Part shown: in pieces, positions 24,703-38,231 of the stretch | How positions within the stretch are numbered: position 1 is the stretch's first letter | Layout of the letters: each line of letters opens with the position of its first letter | Made by a program: the position numbers and the translations under genes | From: Acaryochloridaceae cyanobacterium VAR_48_metabat_390 | Lineage (GTDB): Bacteria > Cyanobacteriota > Cyanobacteriia > Thermosynechococcales > Thermosynechococcaceae | Reading direction: 5' to 3' | NCBI GenBank assembly: GCA_031422435.1 | Contig: JANPLU010000084.1 | Span: 1-52,146 of the forward strand | Length of the DNA stretch: 52,146 bases | The notes under the pieces: model-generated | What the model was told of the DNA's origin: nothing | Databases searched by the model: none | The model's input: only the letters and a program-made list of their open reading frames with translations

Positions 24703-26523
24703 ATGGCATCCTATCGCAATATTATTCAATACTTTCAGGGCTACTGGGCGATCGCTGCTCTCAGTATTGCTGCGTCCAGCTTGTTTGAGATTCTGGATTT
24801 ATGGGTTCCCTACGGCATTGGTCAAATCTTAAACGTGCTGTCAAAGCAGCCTCTAGATGCACCGCTGTTGGCGGTAATTGGGGCGATCGCGTCTTTCTTT
24901 CATCAGCCCGTCGTCACTCCTTCTTTTTCACTGGGGGTGATTGTGGGCATCATTTTTGTGGTTTCAGTGGTGCGGGCGCCCATCCAGCCGTGGATTGGCA
25001 GTTGGTTCCACTGGGCAATTCCGCTGCGGGCACGGCGAGACGCAACCGAAAAAGTCTTGAGCAAAATCTTAACCCTGCCTCTGTCCTTCTATGACGAAAA
25101 CAATCCAGGGCGCATTGCAGGGCGAGTAGCACGGGGGCTAACCAACCACACTTGGTCTTATCCAGAACTGGCGGGGCAGTTTATCCCAAAGCTCGCACGG
25201 GTATTCGGCATTTTTGGGGTGATTTTGCTGCTGGAATGGCGGATTGCGATTGCATTTCTTTTATCTTTTCTCGTAATCTTCGGCCTTAGCCTACGGGGGC
25301 TGCGCTACATCATCAAGCGCGAAGCCATGCTCGATGAGTACATGGAAAGTACCGAAAGCCGCACCTCAGAAATTATTACCAACATCAAAACCGTCAAAGC
25401 CTTTGCCACAGAAGCTGCCGAACTCAACCGTCAGCGCCAGCGTCTAGACCGAGAGCTGACGATGGTGCTGTACCGCATCCATCGCGGCTACGTGCAGCTC
25501 AACACCCTACAAAGAACACTGGTGCAGAGCTGCGTGTTTGGCGTACTGACCCTAACGCTGATGGCAACCCTTCAAGGAGAACTCTCCTTGGGGCATTTTG
25601 TAACGCTCTTCACTCTATCGAGCATGGCCTACGCCGAGCTAGAGCCATTGAGCATTCTGTCTGAGTTCTTTGCCCGACGCTATGCCTCAATGCTGCGCTT
25701 CCATGAGTTGATGCAGCATCCCATTGGCAGCGATGCGGTAAACCTAGACGCTGCAATTGCGCCAACTACGGCACCTCAGTTTAGTGGAAAAGTCGATTTC
25801 AAAAACTTGAGCTTTGGCTATGGCCCTGAACGACTGGTGCTGCAAAACGTTAATCTTCTCATTGAGCCATACCAGACCGTTGCCCTGGTTGGTCGCTCCG
25901 GCTCTGGAAAATCAACCCTAGTCAAACTGCTGTTTCGCTACTTTGAACCCACCAGCGGTCAAATTTTGATAGATGGAACAGACGTGCGATCGCTGGATGT
26001 CAAACAGTATCGCTCTCGCCTCGCCATTGTGCATCAAGAGGTAGACGTGTTTAACGGCACGATCTTAGATAATTTGGTGTACGGCAACCCCAGCGCCAGC
26101 CTGACGGAGGTTGAGGCCGCCTGCAAGATGGCGCGGGTAGATGAATTTATAGGAGAGCTATCGAACGGCTACGCCACAGTCGTAGGGGAACGGGGCGTTC
26201 GCCTATCGGGCGGTCAGCGGCAGCGGTTGGGCATTGCCCGTGCCCTCATCGTAAACCCCGATATTTTAGTGTTTGATGAGGCCACCTCTAGCCTAGACTA
26301 CGAGTCTGAGCGCGCCATTCAGTTGGCGATGCAGTCGATTTTAGGGACGCGCACGACGCTGATTATTGCGCACCGTCTAAGTACCGTAAGAGATGCGGAC
26401 AAAATTGTGGTACTCGAGCAGGGGCGCATCATTGAGGTAGGCTCCCACACGGAGCTGCTAGAGCAGGGAGGATTTTACGCCAGACTCCATGAGCTGCAAA
26501 GTTCTAGCATTTTGGTGCCCTAG
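24703..26523 (+). CDS. ABC transporter ATP-binding/permease protein
   Basis: N-terminal TMD; GRSGSGKS, LSGGQRQR, VFDEATSSLD, IAHRLST. Confidence 0.92.
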   Translation: MASYRNIIQYFQGYWAIAALSIAASSLFEILDLWVPYGIGQILNVLSKQPLDAPLLAVIGAIASFFHQPVVTPSFSLGVIVGIIFVVSVVRAPIQPWIGSWFHWAIPLRARRDATEKVLSKILTLPLSFYDENNPGRIAGRVARGLTNHTWSYPELAGQFIPKLARVFGIFGVILLLEWRIAIAFLLSFLVIFGLSLRGLRYIIKREAMLDEYMESTESRTSEIITNIKTVKAFATEAAELNRQRQRLDRELTMVLYRIHRGYVQLNTLQRTLVQSCVFGVLTLTLMATLQGELSLGHFVTLFTLSSMAYAELEPLSILSEFFARRYASMLRFHELMQHPIGSDAVNLDAAIAPTTAPQFSGKVDFKNLSFGYGPERLVLQNVNLLIEPYQTVALVGRSGSGKSTLVKLLFRYFEPTSGQILIDGTDVRSLDVKQYRSRLAIVHQEVDVFNGTILDNLVYGNPSASLTEVEAACKMARVDEFIGELSNGYATVVGERGVRLSGGQRQRLGIARALIVNPDILVFDEATSSLDYESERAIQLAMQSILGTRTTLIIAHRLSTVRDADKIVVLEQGRIIEVGSHTELLEQGGFYARLHELQSSSILVP

Positions 26524-27030: not shown

Positions 27031-28707
27031 TTACTTCAATTGCCCCGATCGCAGAATACTAATCACCAGCCATAGCCCAATCACGCTAGCCGCAATAAAG
27101 AGAGAGTCGCTGATCCAGATAAATCGGCTGGCTTGGGTTTGGGCAGTAATGGTAGCAGCGCCCATAATTAGGGCACCCACCACAATGCTAAAAGATAAAC
27201 GATTGGCAGCAGCGTCTAAAGTACGACGCATTCCATCTAACTCTGGAATAGAAACACGCCACGTTAGATTTTCTGAAGTGACGCGCTCTAAAATCAGCTC
27301 CATTTGACGGGGGGACTGAAGGCTTAAGTTTTTAAGATCTAAGGCCGTTCGCAAGAGCGCCTGAAGCGGGGCTTCACCCACGAGCTGCTTTTGAAATAGG
27401 TCGGTCATGAGGGGCTTAATTTCTTCAAACAGATTGATGCTGGGGTCAAAGGAGCGCACTACGCCTTCGAGGTTGGCAAGGGTTTTGGCGTATAGCCCCA
27501 AAGAGCTGGGCAACCGGATTTTGTTATTACGCGCCACCTGCAAAATTTCATAAAACACTTCGCTAAAGTTGATGGCAGCTAGATCGCGGTTGTAGTATTT
27601 ACGCAGCAGACGCTCATAGTCTTGCTCTAAGTTTGGGATATTAGCAGGCTGACTGGTTTCTGCTAGCTCCAGGGTGAGCTGAGCGCAGCGACGGGCATCC
27701 ATTTCAACGATCGCCAGCAGCATTTCGGTTAGCAGGCGCTGGGTATTCGGGTCTAAACGACCGACCATGCCGCAGTCTAACAGCGCAAGTTGCCCTTCCC
27801 CCAGGTAAAAAATATTGCCAGGGTGCGGGTCAGCGTGGAAGAACCCATCCACGTAGATTTGCTGGGCGAACGCGCGAAACAGCATAATCATGAGCGATCG
27901 CCGTTCCCCCTGGGTATCATTCCCCACACCTGTCCCCGTTAGACGCGCTTCTAAAATAGGGCCGCCATTCAGCCATTCCATCACCAGCAGATTTTCGGAG
28001 GTAATATCCCAATTAATGGCGGGGATGCGCATTTTAGTGGGGTCAAACCAGCGGCTTTTGGCAAGATTACGCCGGAGTTCGTCGGTAAAGCCTGCTTCGC
28101 GACGAAAGTTCAGCTCGTCTTTAAGGGCATCGCAAAACTCAACGGCAAGGGTTTGGATGGCGTATTCTTTGCCTAGCTCTGTTTTACCCGCCAACCCTGC
28201 TAAAAACTGAATGAGCTGAATATCTTGCTCTACCACCTCCGCAATGCCAGGGCGCTGGATTTTAAGAGCCACTTCTTGACCGTTGATGAGGGTAGCACGA
28301 TGGACTTGGGCAATGGAACCAGCGGCGATCGCAATGGGCTGCACCTGAGCAAACACCTGTTCTAGAGGCTGTCGCAACGACTGCCGCAGTACAGGCTCTA
28401 CCATCGACCAGGGCACCGCAGGCACATTGCTTTGGAGCGTAGAGAGTGCATCAATGTAGGCGCTGGGAAGCAAGTCAGGGCGCGTACTTAAAAGCTGCCC
28501 CAGCTTGACGTAGACAGGCCCCAGCTCAATCAAAATTTTGCGCAATACCGCAGGGGTGGGGAATTCTGGCTCATCGGACTGTCGCCCCATCAGCAGACGA
28601 CGCATATAGCCCCAGCCGTTACGCAACACAATCTCAGCAATTTCGCGCTGGCGGGGACCAGTTTGGGTTAAGCCTGATAACATTGCCGATGCTCCACTAT
28701 CTGTCAA
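27031..28707 (-). CDS. ABC1/AarF/UbiB family atypical kinase
   Basis: LGPVYVKLGQLLSTRPDLL, AAGSIAQVH, VALKIQRPG, FFHADPHPGN, LLDCGMVG; start may be ATG 28683. Confidence 0.92.
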   Translation of the reverse strand: MTDSGASAMLSGLTQTGPRQREIAEIVLRNGWGYMRRLLMGRQSDEPEFPTPAVLRKILIELGPVYVKLGQLLSTRPDLLPSAYIDALSTLQSNVPAVPWSMVEPVLRQSLRQPLEQVFAQVQPIAIAAGSIAQVHRATLINGQEVALKIQRPGIAEVVEQDIQLIQFLAGLAGKTELGKEYAIQTLAVEFCDALKDELNFRREAGFTDELRRNLAKSRWFDPTKMRIPAINWDITSENLLVMEWLNGGPILEARLTGTGVGNDTQGERRSLMIMLFRAFAQQIYVDGFFHADPHPGNIFYLGEGQLALLDCGMVGRLDPNTQRLLTEMLLAIVEMDARRCAQLTLELAETSQPANIPNLEQDYERLLRKYYNRDLAAINFSEVFYEILQVARNNKIRLPSSLGLYAKTLANLEGVVRSFDPSINLFEEIKPLMTDLFQKQLVGEAPLQALLRTALDLKNLSLQSPRQMELILERVTSENLTWRVSIPELDGMRRTLDAAANRLSFSIVVGALIMGAATITAQTQASRFIWISDSLFIAASVIGLWLVISILRSGQLK

Positions 28708-28774
28708 AAACGCATGGTTTATGTTTAGAGTTTAGCGAAGGCGATAAGCACATCAAGTGTTATCCCAACGCTTA

Positions 28775-28944
28775 GGATCATGGATTTAATAATTCACATT
28801 AATTGCCCTCACCCCAACCCTCTCCCTAGGGAGAGGGAGCAAGAGTCTGGTTCCCCTTCTCCTTAGGGAGAAGGGGCTAGGGAATGAGGGCGTGCAAGGT
28901 GCATAACTTCTCCCAAATTCTCTGAGTTATTAAATTCACGATCC
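28775..28944. mobile_element. 170-bp MITE-like element with imperfect 22-bp terminal inverted repeats and TTA flanking duplication
   Basis: Left ggatcatggatttaataattca vs reverse complement of right ggatcgtgaatttaataactca (3 mismatches); TTA at 28772-28774 and 28945-28947; GC-rich branched palindrome inside (28805-28891). Confidence 0.65.
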
Positions 28945-30777
28945 TTAACGGTAATTCTCGGCCTGGGACTCAAACAGTCTGGCATAGCGACCGTTAAGCT
29001 CAACCAACTCCTCGTGGGTTCCCGCTTCGGCAATGTGTCCGTTGTCCATCAAATAAATGCGATCCGCCATTCTGACCGTCGAAAGCCGATGGCTAATCAA
29101 CACCGCCATTTGATCGCGGGTTAGCTCTCGAAACCGCTGAAACACCTCATACTCCGCCATCGGATCCATCGCGCTCGTCGGTTCATCCAGAATAATGAGC
29201 TGCGAGTTCCGCAGAAAGGCGCGCGCCAAGGCCACCTTTTGCCACTGACCAATGCTCAGTTCTTCCCCTTGCTCAAACAGCTTGCCTAAAATGGTGTCGT
29301 AACCCTTGGGCAAACGCTCAATCACGTCGTGGGCACCTGATCGCCGTGCGGCCTGCTCAACGTCCTGCTCGACAGAAGATTCAATGTTGCCAAGCCAGAT
29401 ATTGTCTCGCACCGAGAAAAAATACTTGGCGTAATCTTGAAAAATAACGCTGATATCCTGCCGTAAATCTGCGATCGCAAAGTCCCGAATATCAACCCCG
29501 TCAATCAGAATCTGTCCCTGGGTCGGTTCATAAAGACGGCACAGCAATTTAATCAGCGTCGTTTTGCCGCAGCCATTCTCACCCACTAAGGCGATCGTTT
29601 CTCCAGGTAAAATTTTGAGAGAAACGTCATCTAAAGCCTGTCTGGGCGTATCGGCATACTGAAAGCTGACGTTTCTTACCTCAATCCCGTGCTGCACTGG
29701 CTTCGGGAACGGCTTCGGATAGGCCGGATCGGCAATTTTAGGCTTTAGGTTCAAAAATTCGTACAGGTTGGTCAAAAAGAGATTGTCTTCGTACAGCCCC
29801 GATAGCCCACTCAAAACCCCTTGCAGCGCCGACTCCCCTCGCTGAAGCGCCTGCTGATACAGCACTAAATCACCAATCTTAAGCCTGCCCTGAATCGTTT
29901 CGTAGGCAATAAACACAAAGACCGCCACCGTCAACACTTTGGCAAAGCTTTCTGCCGATAGGTTTGCGATCGCCCGTCGCAGCATCAACCGAAAATTCTC
30001 TTGGTATAGCTGGAGCCGCACCTCACGTCCCTGCCGCCGAAACAGGCCACTTAAATTAAACAGCCGAATCTCTTTGGCAAACTGATCGTGCGCCAGCAGC
30101 ACCCCTAAATACATAGAGCGCCGTTCTAGGCTGGTTCGCTTACGCTGCCACTGATACTGCACCTTTGCAAACTTGAGCCGCACCCAAAGTGCAGGCAGCG
30201 CCGCCACCAGCAGCACACCAGCCAGCCCCCAGTACAGCGATATGAGCAGCGCCAAAATCCCCGCAAGCGAAATGCCGTTTTGTAAAACCTGCGCAATCCG
30301 ATTCAGAATTTGATTGGGTCGAAACGATGCCTCCTGCTGGGCGCGCTGAAGGGTGTCGTAATACTGCGCATTTTCGTAATACTCAAGATCAATCTCAGCG
30401 GATTTTTGAAACAGAATCTCCTGAACATGATCCGTAACCCGATAGGTCTGCGCCGCATTCACCAACTCCGCCAAGGAGGTAAATACGCTGGTGATCAGCA
30501 TGACGCACCCAGACAAAATCAGCAGAAAGAGTGCATGTTCAAACGCTACGGCCTTATTTACCGCCGTTAAGCTCACCGCAATTTGGTCAATAATCAGCTT
30601 GAGTAAATAGAGCGAGATCAGCGGCAATACACCCTGTAAGCTCAGCACCACAACGCGAGCCACTGTCCATTGCGGGGAGCTTTGCCACACCAGCCGTAGG
30701 GCAGGGAGCAAATGAAAGGCTTTTGTAACGCGTTGACGTATTTTTTGTAATGCCTGCATAGAGAACATCTTAAACAT
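28945..30777 (-). CDS. ABC exporter (lasso cluster D protein)
   Basis: TMD plus GENGCGKTT, LSIGQWQKVALAR, ILDEPTS, ISHRLST; overlaps the kinase stop. Confidence 0.9.
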   Translation of the reverse strand: MFKMFSMQALQKIRQRVTKAFHLLPALRLVWQSSPQWTVARVVVLSLQGVLPLISLYLLKLIIDQIAVSLTAVNKAVAFEHALFLLILSGCVMLITSVFTSLAELVNAAQTYRVTDHVQEILFQKSAEIDLEYYENAQYYDTLQRAQQEASFRPNQILNRIAQVLQNGISLAGILALLISLYWGLAGVLLVAALPALWVRLKFAKVQYQWQRKRTSLERRSMYLGVLLAHDQFAKEIRLFNLSGLFRRQGREVRLQLYQENFRLMLRRAIANLSAESFAKVLTVAVFVFIAYETIQGRLKIGDLVLYQQALQRGESALQGVLSGLSGLYEDNLFLTNLYEFLNLKPKIADPAYPKPFPKPVQHGIEVRNVSFQYADTPRQALDDVSLKILPGETIALVGENGCGKTTLIKLLCRLYEPTQGQILIDGVDIRDFAIADLRQDISVIFQDYAKYFFSVRDNIWLGNIESSVEQDVEQAARRSGAHDVIERLPKGYDTILGKLFEQGEELSIGQWQKVALARAFLRNSQLIILDEPTSAMDPMAEYEVFQRFRELTRDQMAVLISHRLSTVRMADRIYLMDNGHIAEAGTHEELVELNGRYARLFESQAENYR

Positions 30778-31654
30778 CCATGGGTGTGGTGATGCCTCTT
30801 AAATCTGCTTCAACAAGCTTTACTAAATCAGACAGCTCAGACAGCGCAGGCTTCCGCTCAAATCGCGCTATCGGCACATTCTGCGCCATCCAAGTGCAGT
30901 CTCGAAAATTCTTGGTTCTAAATTCAGAATGCGTGAGCAACGTGGTTGCCCGAGAATGCTGAAGCAGCGCAATACAGGCATCCGAGGCATTTAGCTCCAC
31001 AATCCGATGCTCAGCCCCTTCATCTAAAACATAAATGCGCTCCAGCGGAAAAGCCGCTTGCCCAAAGCCAGTCGTAAGCTGATGCGATCGCTTAGTCGAT
31101 GAACCATGAATAACGGGCAAACTCTCAGGAGAGTAGCCCGTCGCCGCCGCAGATTCAGGCCAAAGCTTAATCAAGGGGTATCCTGGTAGCGCCATTGGGC
31201 AATCTCCACCCAATTGAACCACCATTACGTCATCCGTCATCACCGGATACCCGTGACCGTGAAAGGCTTGTGCCATTGTTGACTTGCCCGCGCCGCTGTT
31301 GCCGACAAAGGCGATCGCCACGTTATTAACCACAGCGCTACTGGCATGAAGCACTAGCAGCCCTCGCTGACGCAGCAGCACCGCTAAAATAGGGCCAACA
31401 ATAAATGTATTAAGCAGTGCTTCATCTACCCCTGGCAGCGGGTCAACCAAAATTTTTCGACCGTCCAAAACCGCAAACGTGGCAACGCCATCTACCGTAC
31501 CCACAAACTGCTGTCCACCATCCGACTTCAGCGTTTCTAAGTCTTTAGAGCTTGCTAAGACTAGCCATACATCTGGTTCGCCATCCCCTAGCGTTAAAGC
31601 CCGCAACGGAATCTCAGAGCAAACACTAAGCTGATAAGCAGTATAAGTGTACAT
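30770..31654 (-). CDS. HPr-kinase-like kinase (PadeK-type lasso tailoring kinase candidate)
   Basis: LHASS, Walker A GNSGAGKST, TDD di-aspartate; lies directly after the precursor. Confidence 0.82.
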   Translation of the reverse strand: MYTYTAYQLSVCSEIPLRALTLGDGEPDVWLVLASSKDLETLKSDGGQQFVGTVDGVATFAVLDGRKILVDPLPGVDEALLNTFIVGPILAVLLRQRGLLVLHASSAVVNNVAIAFVGNSGAGKSTMAQAFHGHGYPVMTDDVMVVQLGGDCPMALPGYPLIKLWPESAAATGYSPESLPVIHGSSTKRSHQLTTGFGQAAFPLERIYVLDEGAEHRIVELNASDACIALLQHSRATTLLTHSEFRTKNFRDCTWMAQNVPIARFERKPALSELSDLVKLVEADLRGITTPMDV

Positions 31655-31759
31655 CTCATCCTATTTTTGAACCCCTGCAAACCGCAAGGCTACCAAAAAA
31701 ACAGCTACGACTCAGCAAAACTACAAGATAAGGCACCCAAATCTAAAAAGATTGGGTTT

Positions 31760-31790
31760 AAAAAAGGGTAGAAACTAGTTTCTACCCTTT
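31760..31790 (-). terminator. Perfect 28-bp palindrome plus U-tract downstream of the lasso precursor
   Basis: aaagggtagaaactagtttctacccttt (31763-31790) is its own reverse complement; A-run on the left. Confidence 0.7.
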
Positions 31791-31865
31791 CCAGCAACTC
31801 AGAAAATGTCGTTCTAAGTCTCGAAAAAGCTATTCGTATTCCCCAGCGCACCAGCCCAAAGCCGT

Positions 31866-32033
31866 TTATTTAGGAACAACATTACCATCTTGAGAGCCAG
31901 TAGCATTACCAAAAGCATTTCCGTTAAAAAAGATGGTATCTGCAGCGTTAGAACTGCCAAAGGCTTGGGTAATTTCTTGTAAAGCGCCGTGTTGCTTTAA
32001 TTTAGGGGCATTAAACTGTTTTTTCATGTCCAT
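31866..32033 (-). CDS. Lasso peptide precursor (55 aa; alternative start 32027)
   Basis: MDMKKQFNAPKLKQHGALQEITQ-AFGSSNAADTIFFNGNAFGNATGSQDGNVVPK; leader FxxPxLxxxGxxxxxT with Thr at -2; Asp at core position 9; lies between cyclase and kinase. Confidence 0.9.
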   Translation of the reverse strand: MDMKKQFNAPKLKQHGALQEITQAFGSSNAADTIFFNGNAFGNATGSQDGNVVPK

Positions 32034-32055
32034 TGTCCAAGTCAACTACTCGCCT

Positions 32056-32083
32056 AATTTAGCTCATAATTTCTAGAATGCAA
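32056..32083 (-). promoter_or_regulatory. Possible sigma70-type promoter for the precursor
   Basis: Minus strand TTGCAT-16 nt-TAAATT about 20 nt upstream of the precursor ATG. Confidence 0.3.
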
Positions 32084-32202
32084 ACCTCTCAATGTAGAGA
32101 AAAGTCGCTTACTTCATGAATCAATCGGAAAAACGCGGTGTCTACGCTTTCATCTCCAACGTCTAAAAACTAAAGATACAGCACAGCCTAACGTATTTTC
32201 TC

Positions 32203-34281
32203 TCAGGACTCATAATCTCTAGATTCATTTTGCACTATCCTATTATCCTGTTTCTGAAGCCTCAGCCACAGCGATAGTGCTGTTCCTCTCCAAACTGTCG
32301 TTATTTGAACCTGCCGATTTTGTAAACTGAACTTAAGGGATTGAAACTGATCTTGCAAAAGCGCTAAATTCAAGAAGGACTCAGCACTGCCGCCGCCATG
32401 ACCGGAGAGCGCGTTTTCGACAGTAGATCCGTCGGTATGGATCAGCCCGTGTTCAAAGTTCTCTTCCATAGATGTCTTTCCCCCTCTCCACCGAATCGGT
32501 TCAGGCAACACATCTACCAATGCTCGACGCATAACACTCCGCGACCATCCATTTTTGAGCTTCTGCTCTGGCGGCAATGCCAGACAAAACTCAACCAATC
32601 GCTTGTCCATAAAAGGGTGTCTGACCTCAATAGAAAAGGCAGACGCGCACTGATCCGATAACTCTAGAACATGGGTAAATGCGCCAGAGGTTAAATCTCT
32701 ATACTGATCTTCCCTGGCGCTCTGAGGAGGGTACTGGCTCGATTGGCGCGCCTTACAAAGGTTGAAAACGCCCAAGCGTAAAGCAAATTGAGGGTTAAGT
32801 ACAGCGCTAGCGTTAAGGATTTCGTTCGACTGCTGTGCCTTTTTGGTGACGTATTTAAGCTTATGAACAACCCCCAAAAGCCATTGAGGTAAATAAGGCT
32901 TAATCCCATACTGTAGCCACAGCTTACGACGAGATATTGTAAAAGTCTGGCTGATGCCATTAACCCGTTGAGCAAAAGTTAGCCACTGGTGCTTTTGTGC
33001 AAGTTCCGATAGGTAAGGCATAGCATACGCTAACAGAATTGCCCCTGGAGAGGTGTCGAAGTGCCTAGAGACAGCCTTCGCTTCTGCAACAAAGGTTTCC
33101 CACTTTCCTTGACGCGCCAATTCCGTAAAATAAACCGATCCGTGAGAGACAACCGTATCTCCATCAAATCCGTCTAGGCAAATGCGAACGCCAGAAGCCT
33201 GAGTGGCACGGTTTAAACCATGAACGAGAAAATGACTCGGCCCTAAAAATGGTTCATCTAGGTACCGGAAAAATTCTTGCCATTTCGACAAGGGACCAAG
33301 GCGATCTGCCTCTATAAAATGCGGGATATAGCCACCCTGCTCTAGCACTATATTAAAATACTCGCGTTCATCACAGCTTGAGATGCGGTCGAAAATATTA
33401 GAAAAGGTATGCAGGGCTGCAGAACTAGATTGCTCTAGCAGCTCATGCGCCACGCAGGTGATGGCAGAAGAATCCAATCCCCCACTGAGGTGAGAACCGA
33501 TGGGGAAGGCACTGCGAAGCCGACAGCGAACCGCCTCAAAGAAAATGTCTCTAAATGCTGCTGCATAGTCTTCGTCTGTGGGCAAGGTAACAGATGCGGT
33601 GCAGTCGAGTGACCAATAGCAGCAAAGATTGAAATCTGCCTGTGCCGCAACAGTTACCCAGTGGGCTGGCGGGAGCCGAAAAATCTCTTCGTAGACAGTG
33701 TCAGACTTACTTTCTAGCATTGGTTCTAGAAAGTAGTCGGCAATGCGCCGCTCGTTAAGCTGACGAGATACCTCTGGAACCGCAAGCAGCGCTTTGATTT
33801 CAGAGGCAAAAATAAAGTATTGATCTGTATTGCAGTAGTAAAAAGGCTTGATGCCAAAGTGGTCTCTTGCACAGAAAAGCGTTTGCTTGCGGCTATCCCA
33901 AATGGCAAAGGCAAAGTCGCCCAGAAGATAGTTGGGGCAGTCTTGCCCCCATTTTTGATAGGCAGCTAGGATGATCTCACTGTCTGAAATGGCTGAAGCG
34001 TTGACAGCATCTAGCGCTAAGGCGTTAATCAATTCTTCTCGATTGTCAATGCGAGCATCTGCCGTAATGACCAAATCTGCGGCAGCGTCGCAGTAGGGCA
34101 GAACCTCTTTCAAGGACTCTGGTGTTGTCCATAGCATGCCGTGCCCTAGCCCAATCCTGTCACCCAGCCAAACCTTTGACCCATCCGATCCTCGATGAGC
34201 CATGGGTTGGAGCATCCGCTCAAGGACTTGGGACTCTATAGGACGTCCGTTTTTATTAAAAATACCGACAATTCCGCTCAA
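32203..34281 (-). CDS. Lasso peptide isopeptide-bond-forming cyclase (asparagine synthetase-like, C protein)
   Basis: Starts MSGIVG (Ser in place of the AsnB catalytic Cys), ARDHFGIKPFYY, SHLSGGLDSS, GFDGD, RHPFMDKRLVEF; TTG start with GGAG RBS; adjacent to B1/B2. Confidence 0.9.
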   Translation of the reverse strand: MSGIVGIFNKNGRPIESQVLERMLQPMAHRGSDGSKVWLGDRIGLGHGMLWTTPESLKEVLPYCDAAADLVITADARIDNREELINALALDAVNASAISDSEIILAAYQKWGQDCPNYLLGDFAFAIWDSRKQTLFCARDHFGIKPFYYCNTDQYFIFASEIKALLAVPEVSRQLNERRIADYFLEPMLESKSDTVYEEIFRLPPAHWVTVAAQADFNLCCYWSLDCTASVTLPTDEDYAAAFRDIFFEAVRCRLRSAFPIGSHLSGGLDSSAITCVAHELLEQSSSAALHTFSNIFDRISSCDEREYFNIVLEQGGYIPHFIEADRLGPLSKWQEFFRYLDEPFLGPSHFLVHGLNRATQASGVRICLDGFDGDTVVSHGSVYFTELARQGKWETFVAEAKAVSRHFDTSPGAILLAYAMPYLSELAQKHQWLTFAQRVNGISQTFTISRRKLWLQYGIKPYLPQWLLGVVHKLKYVTKKAQQSNEILNASAVLNPQFALRLGVFNLCKARQSSQYPPQSAREDQYRDLTSGAFTHVLELSDQCASAFSIEVRHPFMDKRLVEFCLALPPEQKLKNGWSRSVMRRALVDVLPEPIRWRGGKTSMEENFEHGLIHTDGSTVENALSGHGGGSAESFLNLALLQDQFQSLKFSLQNRQVQITTVWRGTALSLWLRLQKQDNRIVQNESRDYES

Positions 34282-34294
34282 CCATGCACTCCTG

Positions 34295-34774
34295 TCACTC
34301 TAGTGACTCAATGGGTCGAATGCGTAAGGGCTGAGGCAGACTAGGCAAAGGCTTGAAGCGGCTTAGGTCATTGAGCTGCCCCATTACAACGTGCCCTTCA
34401 TACTCAATCCAAGCATGGGCTTCGAGCTGATCAGCATTATTTTTATCCACGCCAATCATGAGTTTTGAAGGGCAGCCCTGCTGGTCTAAGAGCGTTTTCA
34501 TCGTGAGCGCTCTGGCTAAACATTTCACAGAACCTGGCATAAATTTACAGCAGGCATTGACAGCCCATTGCACCCGAGCAACAAGCTGACGTTGACTAAG
34601 CAGGTCTGTCGCAGCGGCCTGCTTGGGACTGCTAATGCGCTCTAAAAAACTACGCAAACGATTAAAAGACCGCCAAACCAAACCTAGCCGCACGAAGGTC
34701 AATAAAACGTAGGTTTTAAGGAAAAGATTCCGCTCTGGCGGGGCAATCTGAATAAACCTAAGAATCGGCTTCAT
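34295..34774 (-). CDS. Lasso peptide leader peptidase B2 (transglutaminase-like)
   Basis: KCLARAL and EAHAWIE catalytic Cys/His motifs; start MKPILRF overlaps the B1 end. Confidence 0.9.
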   Translation of the reverse strand: MKPILRFIQIAPPERNLFLKTYVLLTFVRLGLVWRSFNRLRSFLERISSPKQAAATDLLSQRQLVARVQWAVNACCKFMPGSVKCLARALTMKTLLDQQGCPSKLMIGVDKNNADQLEAHAWIEYEGHVVMGQLNDLSRFKPLPSLPQPLRIRPIESLE

Positions 34775-35072
34775 TGCGAATCTCGACGAGCTGAGCATTC
34801 ACTAAATCGCTCAGTAAAGCCTGGACGGAGCTTGCGCAGGTTTCGGAGTCTACCTCATAGTCTTCCAGAATACTGTCGCAAATGTCTGCAACGGTCTTGG
34901 GCTGTTGAATGAACTCCCAGATCACGCTGCCAAGCTCATCTAAGCCGTAGTACGTCCCGTTTTTGAGGTTGAGAATAACAGACTCGCCAGCCAGATCGGA
35001 TGAAACCTGGTCTTGACTCACAACGACGAGGGAATCTTGCGAAATCAAAGCGCCAGAGGTAGACATACTCAT
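34758..35072 (-). CDS. PqqD-family RiPP recognition element (lasso B1)
   Basis: SSDLAGESVILNLKNGTYYGLDELGSVIWEFI...YEVD...LLSDLVNAQLV. Confidence 0.92.
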   Translation of the reverse strand: MSMSTSGALISQDSLVVVSQDQVSSDLAGESVILNLKNGTYYGLDELGSVIWEFIQQPKTVADICDSILEDYEVDSETCASSVQALLSDLVNAQLVEIRNEADS

Positions 35073-35171
35073 ACTGATACTATCTGCAAAAATGTTCTAC
35101 AAATCTAGCCTATGTTTTTGCAAGCGTCTATGAGGCCATAAAGCGGAATCTGATGAAATCCAACGCTTTTT

Positions 35172-36569
<1,398 letters not shown>

Positions 36570-36791
36570 TCAACGACTGGATTAAGGTATCTGTTTTTCC
36601 ATTGGGTGGAGTAGAGCTGAGATTCAGTTTTCTGTGCTGAACCCAAGACTTCCCCCACTAGAATAAAGTTGAGTTCGACTTGCCTAAAGCTGCGCTCCAT
36701 TGAAGAATAGAGGAGAAAACACCTCTGACACTCTGATACAGGACAGTCAAGGGCATCAAAATGACAATAGAAAGCTGACCAGGAGAGCAAC

Positions 36792-38231
36792 GTGACGCAA
36801 CAGTTTGACTACGATCTTGTCATTATTGGTGCTGGAGTAGGAGGCCACGGGGCAGCGCTCCATGCCGTAGAGTGTGGACTCAAGACCGCCATTGTGGAAT
36901 CTCACGATATGGGCGGCACCTGTGTTAATCGAGGCTGTATTCCATCTAAAGCGCTGTTGGCAGCCTCAGGTCGTGTGCGAGAACTGCGAGATGAGCATCA
37001 TCTCAAGTCCTTGGGCATTCAGCTTCAGCAGGTATCTTTTAACCGCGAAGGCATTGCCGATCACGCGAGCAATCTGGTCGCAAAGCTGCGGGGCGACCTT
37101 ACCAATAGCCTGACGCGCATTAAGGTAGACATTCTGAAGGGCTGGGGAAAGGTTGCGGGGCCTCAAAAGGTCGAAATTATTGGCGATGCAGGGGACAAGA
37201 CCGTTACCACACGCAACATTATTGTAGCCAGTGGCTCTGTTCCTTGGGTGCCACCAGGGGTGCAGGTGGATGGCAAGACCGTTTTTACCAGTGATGATGC
37301 CATTAAGCTCAACTGGCTGCCGTCTTGGGTTGCCATTATCGGCAGCGGCTATATTGGCCTAGAGTTTTCGGATGTTTATACCGCCCTTGGATCTGAAGTG
37401 ACGATGATTGAGGCGATGGATCGGCTAATGCCAACCTTTGACCCCGATATTGCCAAAATTGCCCAGCGGGTGCTGATTGACCCACGGGACGTAGAGACTC
37501 GCGTAGGGTTAATTGCGAAGAAGGTTACGCCAGGATCACCTGTGGTAATTGAGCTGGCTGACCCTAAAACCAAAGAAGTGGTTGAGACCATTGAGGTGGA
37601 TGCTTGCCTAGTGGCAACGGGTCGTATCCCTGCCACCAAAAACTTAGGATTAGAAACCGTCGGAGCCGAAACCGATCAGCGTGGATTTATTCCGGTGAAC
37701 GATCATCTCCAGGTCATGAGCCAGGGTGAGCCGATTCCGCACCTGTACGCGATTGGGGACGCGACGGGCAAGATGATGCTAGCTCACGCGGCCTCAGCCC
37801 AGGGGATTGCGGCGGTAGAAACTATGTGTGGACGCGATCGCACCGTCAATTACCGCGCCATCCCCGCAGCCGCCTTCACCCATCCTGAGGTTAGCTTTGT
37901 GGGGTTAACAGAACCTCAGGCTAAAGAACTCGGTGATGCAGAAGGATTCAAAATTAGTGCAGTGCGGAGCTATTTCAAGGGCAATTCTAAGGCGCTTGCA
38001 GAAGGTGAAACCGATGGGATTGCCAAAATCATCTATCGAGAAGACACAGGGGAAGTTTTGGGAGCGCACATTATTGGGCTACACGCAGCGGATTTAATCC
38101 ATGAGGCGTCTAATGCGATCGCCCAAGGTGCCACGGTGCAAACGCTGTCTCACTTTGTCCATACCCACCCCACACTATCTGAGGTGCTAGATGAAGCTTA
38201 CAAACGCGCGGCGGTGGCAGTGAAAGCGTAG
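36792..38231 (+). CDS. lpdA: Dihydrolipoyl dehydrogenase
   Basis: [27 protein letters not shown]. Confidence 0.96.

Follow-up and report, generated by a model that had tools for sequence, protein, structure and literature searches.

An intact cyanobacterial lasso peptide gene cluster beside purA, with a kinase-like gene and a conserved internal Ser in the precursor tail

The 52,146-nucleotide (nt) stretch of DNA analysed here (contig JANPLU010000084.1 of Acaryochloridaceae cyanobacterium VAR_48_metabat_390; hereafter the window, to which all positions refer) carries on its minus strand, at 28945-35072, six genes that we designate B1, B2, C, A, K and D. Our best explanation for these genes is that they form an intact cluster of the cyanobacterial type whose product, a class II lasso peptide of 32 residues, would be exported and would likely carry a phosphate on an internal Ser, a composite proposal that we rate slightly below an even call. 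That the genes encode a lasso pathway as such is highly probable.

In the mechanism that we propose, B1 would bind the leader of the 53-residue precursor encoded by A, and B2 would cut the precursor after Thr(-2)-Gln(-1). The cyclase C would adenylate Asp9 and join it to the new amine of Ala1, giving a ring of 9 residues, and the tail of 23 residues would be threaded through it. K would likely phosphorylate Ser24 within the tail motif G-S-x-D while the precursor is still linear, and D would export the product. Two aspects make the cluster worth following, namely the pairing of a conserved internal Ser with the failure of the C-terminal-Ser rule known from other lasso kinases, and the apparent swapping of a gene cassette at a fixed locus.

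The biosynthetic genes and the predicted product

The cluster is compact (6.1 kb) and intact, with all six reading frames open and the catalytic residues preserved. B1 (34758-35072, 104 amino acids [aa]) is a stand-alone PqqD-type recognition element for peptides that are ribosomally synthesised and post-translationally modified (RiPPs), that is, a leader-binding chaperone, and B2 (34295-34798, 167 aa) is a transglutaminase-like Cys/His leader peptidase. C (32203-34281, 692 aa from a TTG start, with the N-terminus MSGIVGIF) is an Asn-synthetase-like, ATP-dependent lasso (isopeptide) cyclase. The open reading frame (ORF) of the precursor gene A spans 31866-32045, and a homology-supported ATG at 32027 gives a gene at 31866-32027 whose 53-aa product begins MKKQF. 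K (30770-31654, 294 aa) is a P-loop kinase-like protein with the fold of HprK and phosphoenolpyruvate carboxykinase (PEPCK), and D (28945-30777, 610 aa) is an ATP-binding cassette (ABC) exporter with a transmembrane domain and a nucleotide-binding domain and without a peptidase domain. An earlier, sequence-only reading of the window had described six co-oriented genes between purA and an ABC1 kinase gene, with overlaps between B1 and B2 and between the kinase and exporter genes; all six were found at these positions, and the overlaps of the longest ORFs measure 41 nt for B1/B2 and 8 nt for K/D.

The same reading had called the set a complete lasso peptide cluster of the order B1-B2-C-A-kinase-ABC, and family searches agree. 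The profile searches that it had suggested all gave matches above cut-off in Pfam, with B1 matching PqqD (PF05402, 69.2 bits, cut-off 23.4), B2 matching Transglut_core3 (PF13471, 90.2 bits, cut-off 26) and C matching Asn_synthase (162.8 bits, cut-off 21) in addition to GATase_7 (110.3 bits). Four of the proteins also exceed curated NCBI lasso cut-offs, two of the models being specific to cyanobacteria: B1 matches NF033536 lasso_PqqD_Bac (83.4 bits, cut-off 80), B2 matches NF033537 lasso_biosyn_B2 (104.5 bits, cut-off 33), C matches NF033535 lass_lactam_cya (913.6 bits, cut-off 525), and A matches NF033528 lasso_cyano (49.7 bits, cut-off 33) in an alignment that begins at the ATG at 32027. The exporter D matches ABC_tran (PF00005, 121 bits), and its MsbA-like NCBIfam match of 286 bits lies under the equivalog cut-offs.

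Catalytic residues point the same way. Cys93 and His128 of B2 are invariant among 72 homologues, and the PP-loop of C, SGGLDS (S266-S271), is invariant among 97. The sequence-only reading had noticed Ser in place of the N-terminal Cys of the cyclase; residue 2 of C is indeed Ser where AsnB has its Cys nucleophile directly after Met1, and the replacement is found in 97/97 homologues. The sequence features expected of a lasso system with a split B protein are present, namely a penultimate leader Thr, Asp9 as acceptor, separate B1 and B2, and a PP-loop cyclase with a dead glutaminase site.

One alternative is that no lasso pathway operates here, C being a genuine asparagine synthase that depends on glutamine or the cluster being a decaying remnant. 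It is a point against our reading that C also scores above the generic asparagine synthase model TIGR01536 (290.6 bits, cut-off 267.1). The lasso cyclase model, however, scores C three times higher, the Ser for Cys replacement runs through all of the homologues, none of the six frames is interrupted and the catalytic residues are preserved, and the cluster is kept beside purA in most of the related genomes described below. We consider this alternative very improbable indeed.

The precursor consists of the leader MKKQFNAPKLKQHGALQEITQ, which ends ...EITQ and has Thr at position -2, and a predicted core of 32 aa, AFGSSNAADTIFFNGNAFGNATGSQDGNVVPK, which contains no Cys and in which the ring would run from Ala1 to Asp9 and the tail motif is G23-S24-x-D26. 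The core ends ...DGNVVPK, and its last 8 residues include no Ser, Thr or Tyr. Related precursors were gathered by leader pattern, which gave 115 (105 unique) from 80 of 93 sources, and a looser pattern recovered further precursors in loci first scored as being without one. The conservation alignment comprises 83 unique precursors, for which the sole selection criteria were Gly3 plus an acidic residue within positions 8-10. All of them (100%) have Thr(-2) and Gly3, and 98% have Asp9. Within the tail the conserved columns are G15 (80%), G23 (90%), position 24 (Ser in 86%, Ser or Thr in 93%) and D26 (76%), and no core column besides those listed here reaches 70%. Ser24 is therefore the sole conserved hydroxyl among the core columns. 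The core sequence itself is new, and the 90% sequence cluster to which it belongs has 7 members, all metagenomic and either labelled 'hypothetical' or without a name.

The penultimate leader Thr is an established recognition element (PMC10368454), and in the close Cyanocohniella homologue a Gly lies directly after T-Q. On these two grounds cleavage is predicted after T-Q, and the product is predicted to be a class II lasso of 32 residues, with cleavage site, ring size and threading all deduced from the precursor and its relatives. An Ala1-Asp9 ring is, in our estimation, probable. The calculated monoisotopic masses are 3174.464 Da for the linear core, 3156.454 Da for the lasso ([M+2H]2+ 1579.234) and 3236.420 Da for the lasso with one phosphate ([M+2H]2+ 1619.217), a phosphate adding 79.966 Da.

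Two features of the core weigh against this ring. Ala is less usual than Gly as the first core residue, known lasso peptides most often beginning with Gly, and the invariant Gly3 may allow a leader cut two residues further on. The core would then start from Gly3 and have 30 residues, with a 7-residue Gly-to-Asp lactam and a lasso mass of 2938.348 Da. Such a start would account for a Gly3 found in every one of the 83 precursors, and the paper on the Cyanocohniella metagenome-assembled genome (MAG) draws its peptide with an N-terminal Gly (PMC9332814). The Gly of the Cyanocohniella precursor is, however, the residue right after T-Q, so that its N-terminal Gly fits T-x cleavage. Moreover, the Thr that is invariant in the 83 precursors lies exactly two residues before Ala1, as a penultimate recognition element should (PMC10368454), and the rings of paeninodin and pseudomycoidin start at an N-terminal Ala (PMC6993621). 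A cut before Gly3 seems to us improbable, and we keep the Ala1-Asp9 ring in what follows.

The kinase-like protein and the tail Ser

K scores above no curated family cut-off in Pfam and NCBIfam scans, and its assignment as kinase-like rests on its P-loop, DD motif and predicted fold. The Walker A motif GNSGAGKS (G121-x-G123-K124-S125) and the metal-binding pair D141-D142 are intact, and an alignment of 15 homologues taken from cyanobacterial lasso loci shows no variation at H103, G121, G123, K124, S125, D141 or D142. The AlphaFold2 model for which this alignment served as input (predicted local distance difference test 92.4, predicted template-modelling score 0.89) matched, in a Foldseek search of the PDB, ATP-dependent PEPCKs (E 3e-9, TMq ~0.6) and HprK/P (1kkl_B and 3tqf_A, E 1.2e-5, TMt 0.55), which belong to one fold superfamily. 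K resembles these enzymes in predicted fold and P-loop; it differs from them in its low identity (~10-16%), in having its own N-terminal domain and in lying in a RiPP operon, and an HPr-related role is not expected.

In a large protein database 1316 proteins match K at E <= 0.001, with source names that include 'serine kinase' and 'HPr kinase'. Among the 120 homologues listed, most carry the precomputed label PF27840.1, for which the ESM Atlas gives the name 'ScmC', and some also carry PF07475 (Hpr_kinase_C); the local Pfam scan of the window K matched neither PF27840 nor PF07475. Taken together, the invariant P-loop and DD motifs and the fold matches to HprK/P and PEPCK support 'HPr-kinase-like', the term used in the sequence-only reading, at the level of motifs and predicted fold.

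The next question is which residue would be the target of K. In the lasso kinases characterised so far, the substrate is the linear precursor, not yet cyclised, and the phosphate goes to its C-terminal Ser (PMC8498205, PMC6993621). The sequence-only reading had compared K with paeninodin-type kinases, and the comparison holds for the enzyme, an HprK-like protein with P-loop and DD, and fails for the substrate, since the window precursor ends in Lys. A C-terminal Ser is found in only 11 of the 83 related cores. With no hydroxyl in the last 8 residues of the window core, any phosphorylation of the peptide would have to be at an internal site.

The tails offer a candidate for such a site. The motif GSx[DN] is present in 61 of the 83 tails, as against 5.3 on average and never more than 14 when the tails were shuffled 1000 times, a contrast that is overstated because the compared sequences are kin. 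A precursor alignment that had been selected for the motif was not used as evidence for it. A second sample was drawn without any selection by the tail: a profile covering the leader and the first 12 core residues, built from 98 precursors, was searched against 1.84 billion cluster representatives (clusters at 50% identity), and it gave 1734 matches at E <= 0.001. The best 150 of the 1734 were taken, and 148 of them had a recognisable leader end. The motif occurs in 90 of these 148 (shuffle mean 7.0, maximum 17, with the same overstatement through kinship). When the 148 representatives are sorted by both features, 84 have the motif only, 27 have a C-terminal Ser only, 6 have both and 31 have neither; the odds ratio is 0.08 and the nominal Fisher p 2e-8, again overstated since the sequences are related.

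The near-exclusivity of the motif and the C-terminal Ser, together with the fact that the window precursor departs from the C-terminal-Ser rule, suggests phosphorylation of an internal Ser. In our reading, short-tailed, Ser-terminated cyanobacterial precursors follow the paeninodin rule, and long-tailed ones, including that of the window, would be phosphorylated at the internal Ser of G-S-x-D. There is a precedent for an internal site in LppK, an HprK-like RiPP kinase that acts on Ser3 of its substrate (PMC13381572). For the window peptide we put forward phosphorylation at Ser24 tentatively, as somewhat less than an even prospect. The combination of a nearly universal kinase-like gene, an absent C-terminal Ser and a conserved G-S-x-D Ser turns the 'possibly phosphorylated' of the sequence-only reading into a specific proposal with predicted masses.

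Several observations count against phosphorylation at Ser24. The lasso kinases studied reportedly require a C-terminal Ser and are little affected by the remainder of the peptide (PMC8498205), and the window precursor has Lys in that place. K scores just 27-28 bits, against a cut-off of 200, with TIGR04352 and TIGR04355, the models for HprK-related kinases A and B, and its best sequence match in the PDB is a Coxiella HPr(Ser) kinase at E 0.021, over LHA...G.SG.GKS...DDV. Of the 148 representatives, 31 carry neither the motif nor a C-terminal Ser, and the role of the GSxD motif could lie in folding, threading or recognition rather than in phosphorylation.

An alternative explanation within the same lasso pathway is that K is not a peptide kinase at all, and is instead an accessory nucleotide-binding protein with a role in export, immunity or regulation, or a kinase with another substrate, in which case the product would be unmodified. 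K is translationally coupled to D through the 8-nt overlap and adjoins D in 56 of 77 loci, it passes no curated kinase model, its best fold matches are PEPCKs rather than protein kinases, and the precursor lacks the C-terminal Ser that characterised lasso kinases require. Set against this, the invariant Walker A motif, DD pair and His103 are catalytic features of the HprK type, and in PsmK, the pseudomycoidin kinase, changing the DD of the predicted metal site to AA abolishes phosphorylation (PMC6993621). The HprK-like proteins studied so far in RiPP clusters are peptide kinases (PMC8498205, PMC13381572, PMC6993621), and a single hydroxyl residue is conserved in an otherwise variable precursor tail. 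We regard a role for K other than peptide phosphorylation as unlikely, though it deserves to be kept in view.

It is also conceivable that the tail is trimmed after Ser24 (G-S / x-D), with removal of an 8-residue follower, and that the mature C-terminal Ser24 is then phosphorylated in keeping with the paeninodin rule. The near-exclusivity of the motif and a C-terminal Ser would be expected if both routes end in a C-terminal Ser, and the segment after the motif Ser varies from 5 to 36 residues, as a disposable follower might. The Pfam and NCBIfam scans, however, found no second protease encoded in the cluster and no peptidase domain in D; the segment after the Ser is conserved in the window's own subfamily (xDG-V/I-V/I-x-P); and 26 of the 83 members have two Cys after the motif, which suggests that the segment stays in the product. 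Known kinases, moreover, act on the linear precursor before cyclisation (PMC8498205). Trimming appears to us a rather improbable route, and phosphorylation of Ser24 within the full-length tail remains our preferred proposal.

Paeninodin and pseudomycoidin clusters of Bacillota and SyanK-type clusters of Proteobacteria share with the window the split B1/B2, C, an HprK-like protein with P-loop and DD, and an ABC exporter. The ring predicted for the window core, with an N-terminal Ala joined to an inner Asp, is of the kind drawn for paeninodin and pseudomycoidin (PMC6993621). They differ in gene order, and the window cluster has no nucleotidyltransferase. A C-terminal Ser is reported as the single feature common to all substrates of the characterised kinases (PMC8498205), whereas the window precursor has the conserved internal G-S-x-D. 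In the LPP family of Bacillota, the HprK-like LppK modifies the internal core residue Ser3 under the guidance of a leader bound to the RiPP recognition element (RRE) (PMC13381572). That family lacks a lasso cyclase and B2 and has a signal-peptidase-like protease, and its phosphosite lies near the core N-terminus instead of in a C-terminal tail motif. If phosphorylation at Ser24 is true, the substrate rule of HprK-like RiPP kinases would be widened and a handle gained for site-specific phosphorylation of lasso scaffolds; if it is false, nothing would set the cluster apart within a family already catalogued.

A quick maximum-likelihood tree of 93 K sequences contains a split with 100% support that separates a 15-row clade (1 with GSxD) from a 78-row clade (51 with GSxD). 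The tree was considered as proof of co-evolution between kinase and precursor and was given little weight, because whole clusters co-diverge and it is not independent evidence.

Elements related to K and to the precursor were also seen outside the cluster. A second HprK-like paralogue lies elsewhere in the genome, outside any lasso cluster (G000:C20:24777-25667; L128:8745-9668, minus strand), and encodes 307 aa that score 294.8 bits with the K profile. It is followed by a gene for a 388-aa protein (L128:7575-8741, minus strand) with a weak C-terminal PqqD match of 18.1 bits, below cut-off, and a search upstream of the paralogue on C20 for a precursor-like ORF found none. On another contig (G000:C134; L129:7309-7491, plus strand), there is, ~200 nt upstream of a gene for cyanoexosortase A (TIGR03763, 207.9 bits), a small ORF whose leader, KKSWNVPHLTKYGTVEQLTE, resembles that of lasso_cyano but does not reach the cut-off (20.6 bits against 33). 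The core that follows this leader lacks Asp and Glu at positions 7-9 and so is not a standard lasso core, and the ORF may encode an orphan RRE substrate or be a chance match. Among the leader-profile matches, P0165 (382 aa) and P0159 (133 aa) contain 5 and 2 lasso-leader-like stretches per chain, respectively; they would be either precursors, fused or in tandem, or unrelated proteins in which leader-like modules recur.

Distribution of the cluster and exchange at the purA locus

The distribution of the cyclase family is patchy. Of 401 genomes sampled from the phylum, 14 pass the cyclase model, among them that of the window; for the window's family the figure is 23 of 48, and all 9 other genomes of its genus gave cyclase matches at E <= 1e-60. 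Fifteen loci chosen through the cyclase have the order B1-B2-C-A-K-D with 1-4 copies of A; K was found by BLASTP in 14 of them, and in the fifteenth a K-like frame runs into the contig end. A locus scan based on a 9-sequence alignment of K, with one genome per species, gave 77 loci, nearly all cyanobacterial by record title. Among these, C lies no more than 3.5 kb upstream in 70, D follows K within 0.6 kb in 56, and the full set of B1, B2, C, K and D is present in 52, the remaining loci being mostly on short contigs. The order B1-B2-C-A(n)-K-D thus recurs in ~90 cyanobacterial loci, which is far beyond chance. K is thus a regular constituent of cyanobacterial lasso clusters rather than an extra found here and there.

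The sequence-only reading had remarked that cyanobacterial lasso peptides are known mostly from genome mining. This agrees with reports of genome-mined clusters in Roseofilum (PMC9967302), Cyanocohniella sp. LLY (PMC9332814) and Chlorogloeopsis (PMC11392904), and a Stanieria lasso cluster with a PsmK homologue was remarked on in 2019 (PMC6993621). In the literature searchable in full text, outside of which subscription papers lie, we found no isolated or characterised cyanobacterial lasso peptide, the clusters appearing as genome-mining results; the exact phrase 'cyanobacterial lasso peptide' did not occur in that literature. The window shares its four core proteins and the order B1-B2-C-A-K-D with the genome-mined cyanobacterial clusters defined by NF033535 and NF033528, and the Cyanocohniella precursor is 62% identical to the window precursor by BLASTP, with a common tail ...DTIFFNG...GSxDG..VP. 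The excerpts of the Cyanocohniella and Roseofilum MAG papers leave the kinase-like gene unmentioned in their cluster accounts.

Given the curated NCBI models and the recurring gene order, the cluster belongs to a kind that is already catalogued from genome mining. The novelty implied by the sequence-only reading was therefore overstated, as both NF033535 and NF033528 exist and the gene order is found in ~90 other cyanobacterial loci. The precursor family is a large one, as the 1734 representative clusters matched by the leader-plus-ring profile indicate, and within it the window cluster would be convenient to express because it is compact (6.1 kb), intact and has a single Cys-free precursor.

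The sequence-only reading had also suggested a synteny check of the purA flank. In 6 of the 7 genus genomes examined that had a purA match, the lasso cluster lies directly downstream of purA; in the seventh it is located on a different contig. No lasso cluster lay beside purA in three genomes from other genera of the family. The comparison along the locus covered loci L113-L119 (G401, G402, G403, G405, G406 and G409).

Identity to the window is unevenly spread along this locus. In G401 the DNA identities are 87% for purA, 97% for B1, 89% for B2, 81% for C, 87% for A, 93% for K and 94% for D, and thus B1, K and D (93-97%) are closer to the window than is purA. The corresponding values in G409 are 78%, 70%, 54%, 53%, 43%, 51% and 71%, and its protein identities are 41% for C, 37% for A and 40% for K, as against 75% for D and 64% for B1. 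Across the genus the ends of the cluster, B1 and D, are kept at 64-99% protein identity, whereas C, A and K fall to ~40% in G409 and G405. In G406, the same site holds a short-type cyclase and a quite different core. This mosaic of identities, with ends and position retained, suggests that a central cassette of C, A and K has been exchanged by recombination, and it is consistent with diversification of the product at the purA-adjacent site. A broader and more speculative proposal, which we think somewhat more likely to be wrong than right, is that a distinct HprK/ScmC-like clade phosphorylates a conserved internal Ser of the threaded tail (G-pS-x-D), in place of the C-terminal one, in a large cyanobacterial lasso family, which would be a new logic of lasso tailoring, and that cyclase, precursor and kinase are exchanged between congeners as a cassette at this locus, so that the product diversifies.

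Three further observations concern the loci of relatives. Homologues of the exporter D fall into two classes, ~60% and ~38% identical to the window D, which do not track the cyclase subtype and are a further sign of modular reshuffling. In G405 (C85; L117, 5543-8287) the coding sequences of the K and D homologues are both broken, each into two ORFs, possibly through frameshifts, as pseudogenes or by assembly errors, the genome being 76% complete. A 3.4-kb contig in a Bacteroidota MAG (uncultured Chryseolinea sp., L090) has a cyanobacterial-type C-A-K stretch and a precursor with GSLD, for which a binning error is more likely than transfer.

Flanking genes and a hairpin after the precursor gene

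Upstream of the cluster lies purA, for adenylosuccinate synthase (35172-36554, minus strand; PF00709, 621 bits), and downstream of it a gene for an ABC1/UbiB-type atypical kinase (27031-28707, minus strand; PF03109, 234 bits). The latter was dropped as a cluster member, being a neighbour in 0 of the relatives examined. An ABC exporter gene on the plus strand at 24703-26523, upstream, was considered as a second cluster transporter and likewise dropped, since two unrelated genes intervene; its similarity to D is confined to the nucleotide-binding domain (38% over 267 aa). A repeat search over 28400-35400 found neither direct nor inverted repeats at the flanks, such as a mobile insertion would show, and returned a single hairpin palindrome, described below. 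A search for sequencing runs that contain this DNA listed metagenomic DNA runs and none of RNA, which says nothing either way about expression. An Rfam scan at gathering thresholds over 28500-36800 gave no match, and a consensus scan for promoters and terminators gave nothing above shuffles and missed this hairpin, whose loop is 2-4 nt.

The palindrome is a perfect 14+14-nt repeat at 31763-31790 on the minus strand, ~77 nt after the stop codon of the precursor gene, and is followed by a T-run. The stem comprises 13-14 bp, and the z-score of the 121-nt stretch is -2.79. Palindrome and T-run are conserved in the two closest relatives, G401 and G403, and a comparable hairpin with a T-rich tail was found after 18 of 110 precursor genes, compared with 1 of 110 shuffled controls. 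The hairpin is a candidate for a leaky or partial terminator that would raise the level of precursor transcript over that of the enzymes.

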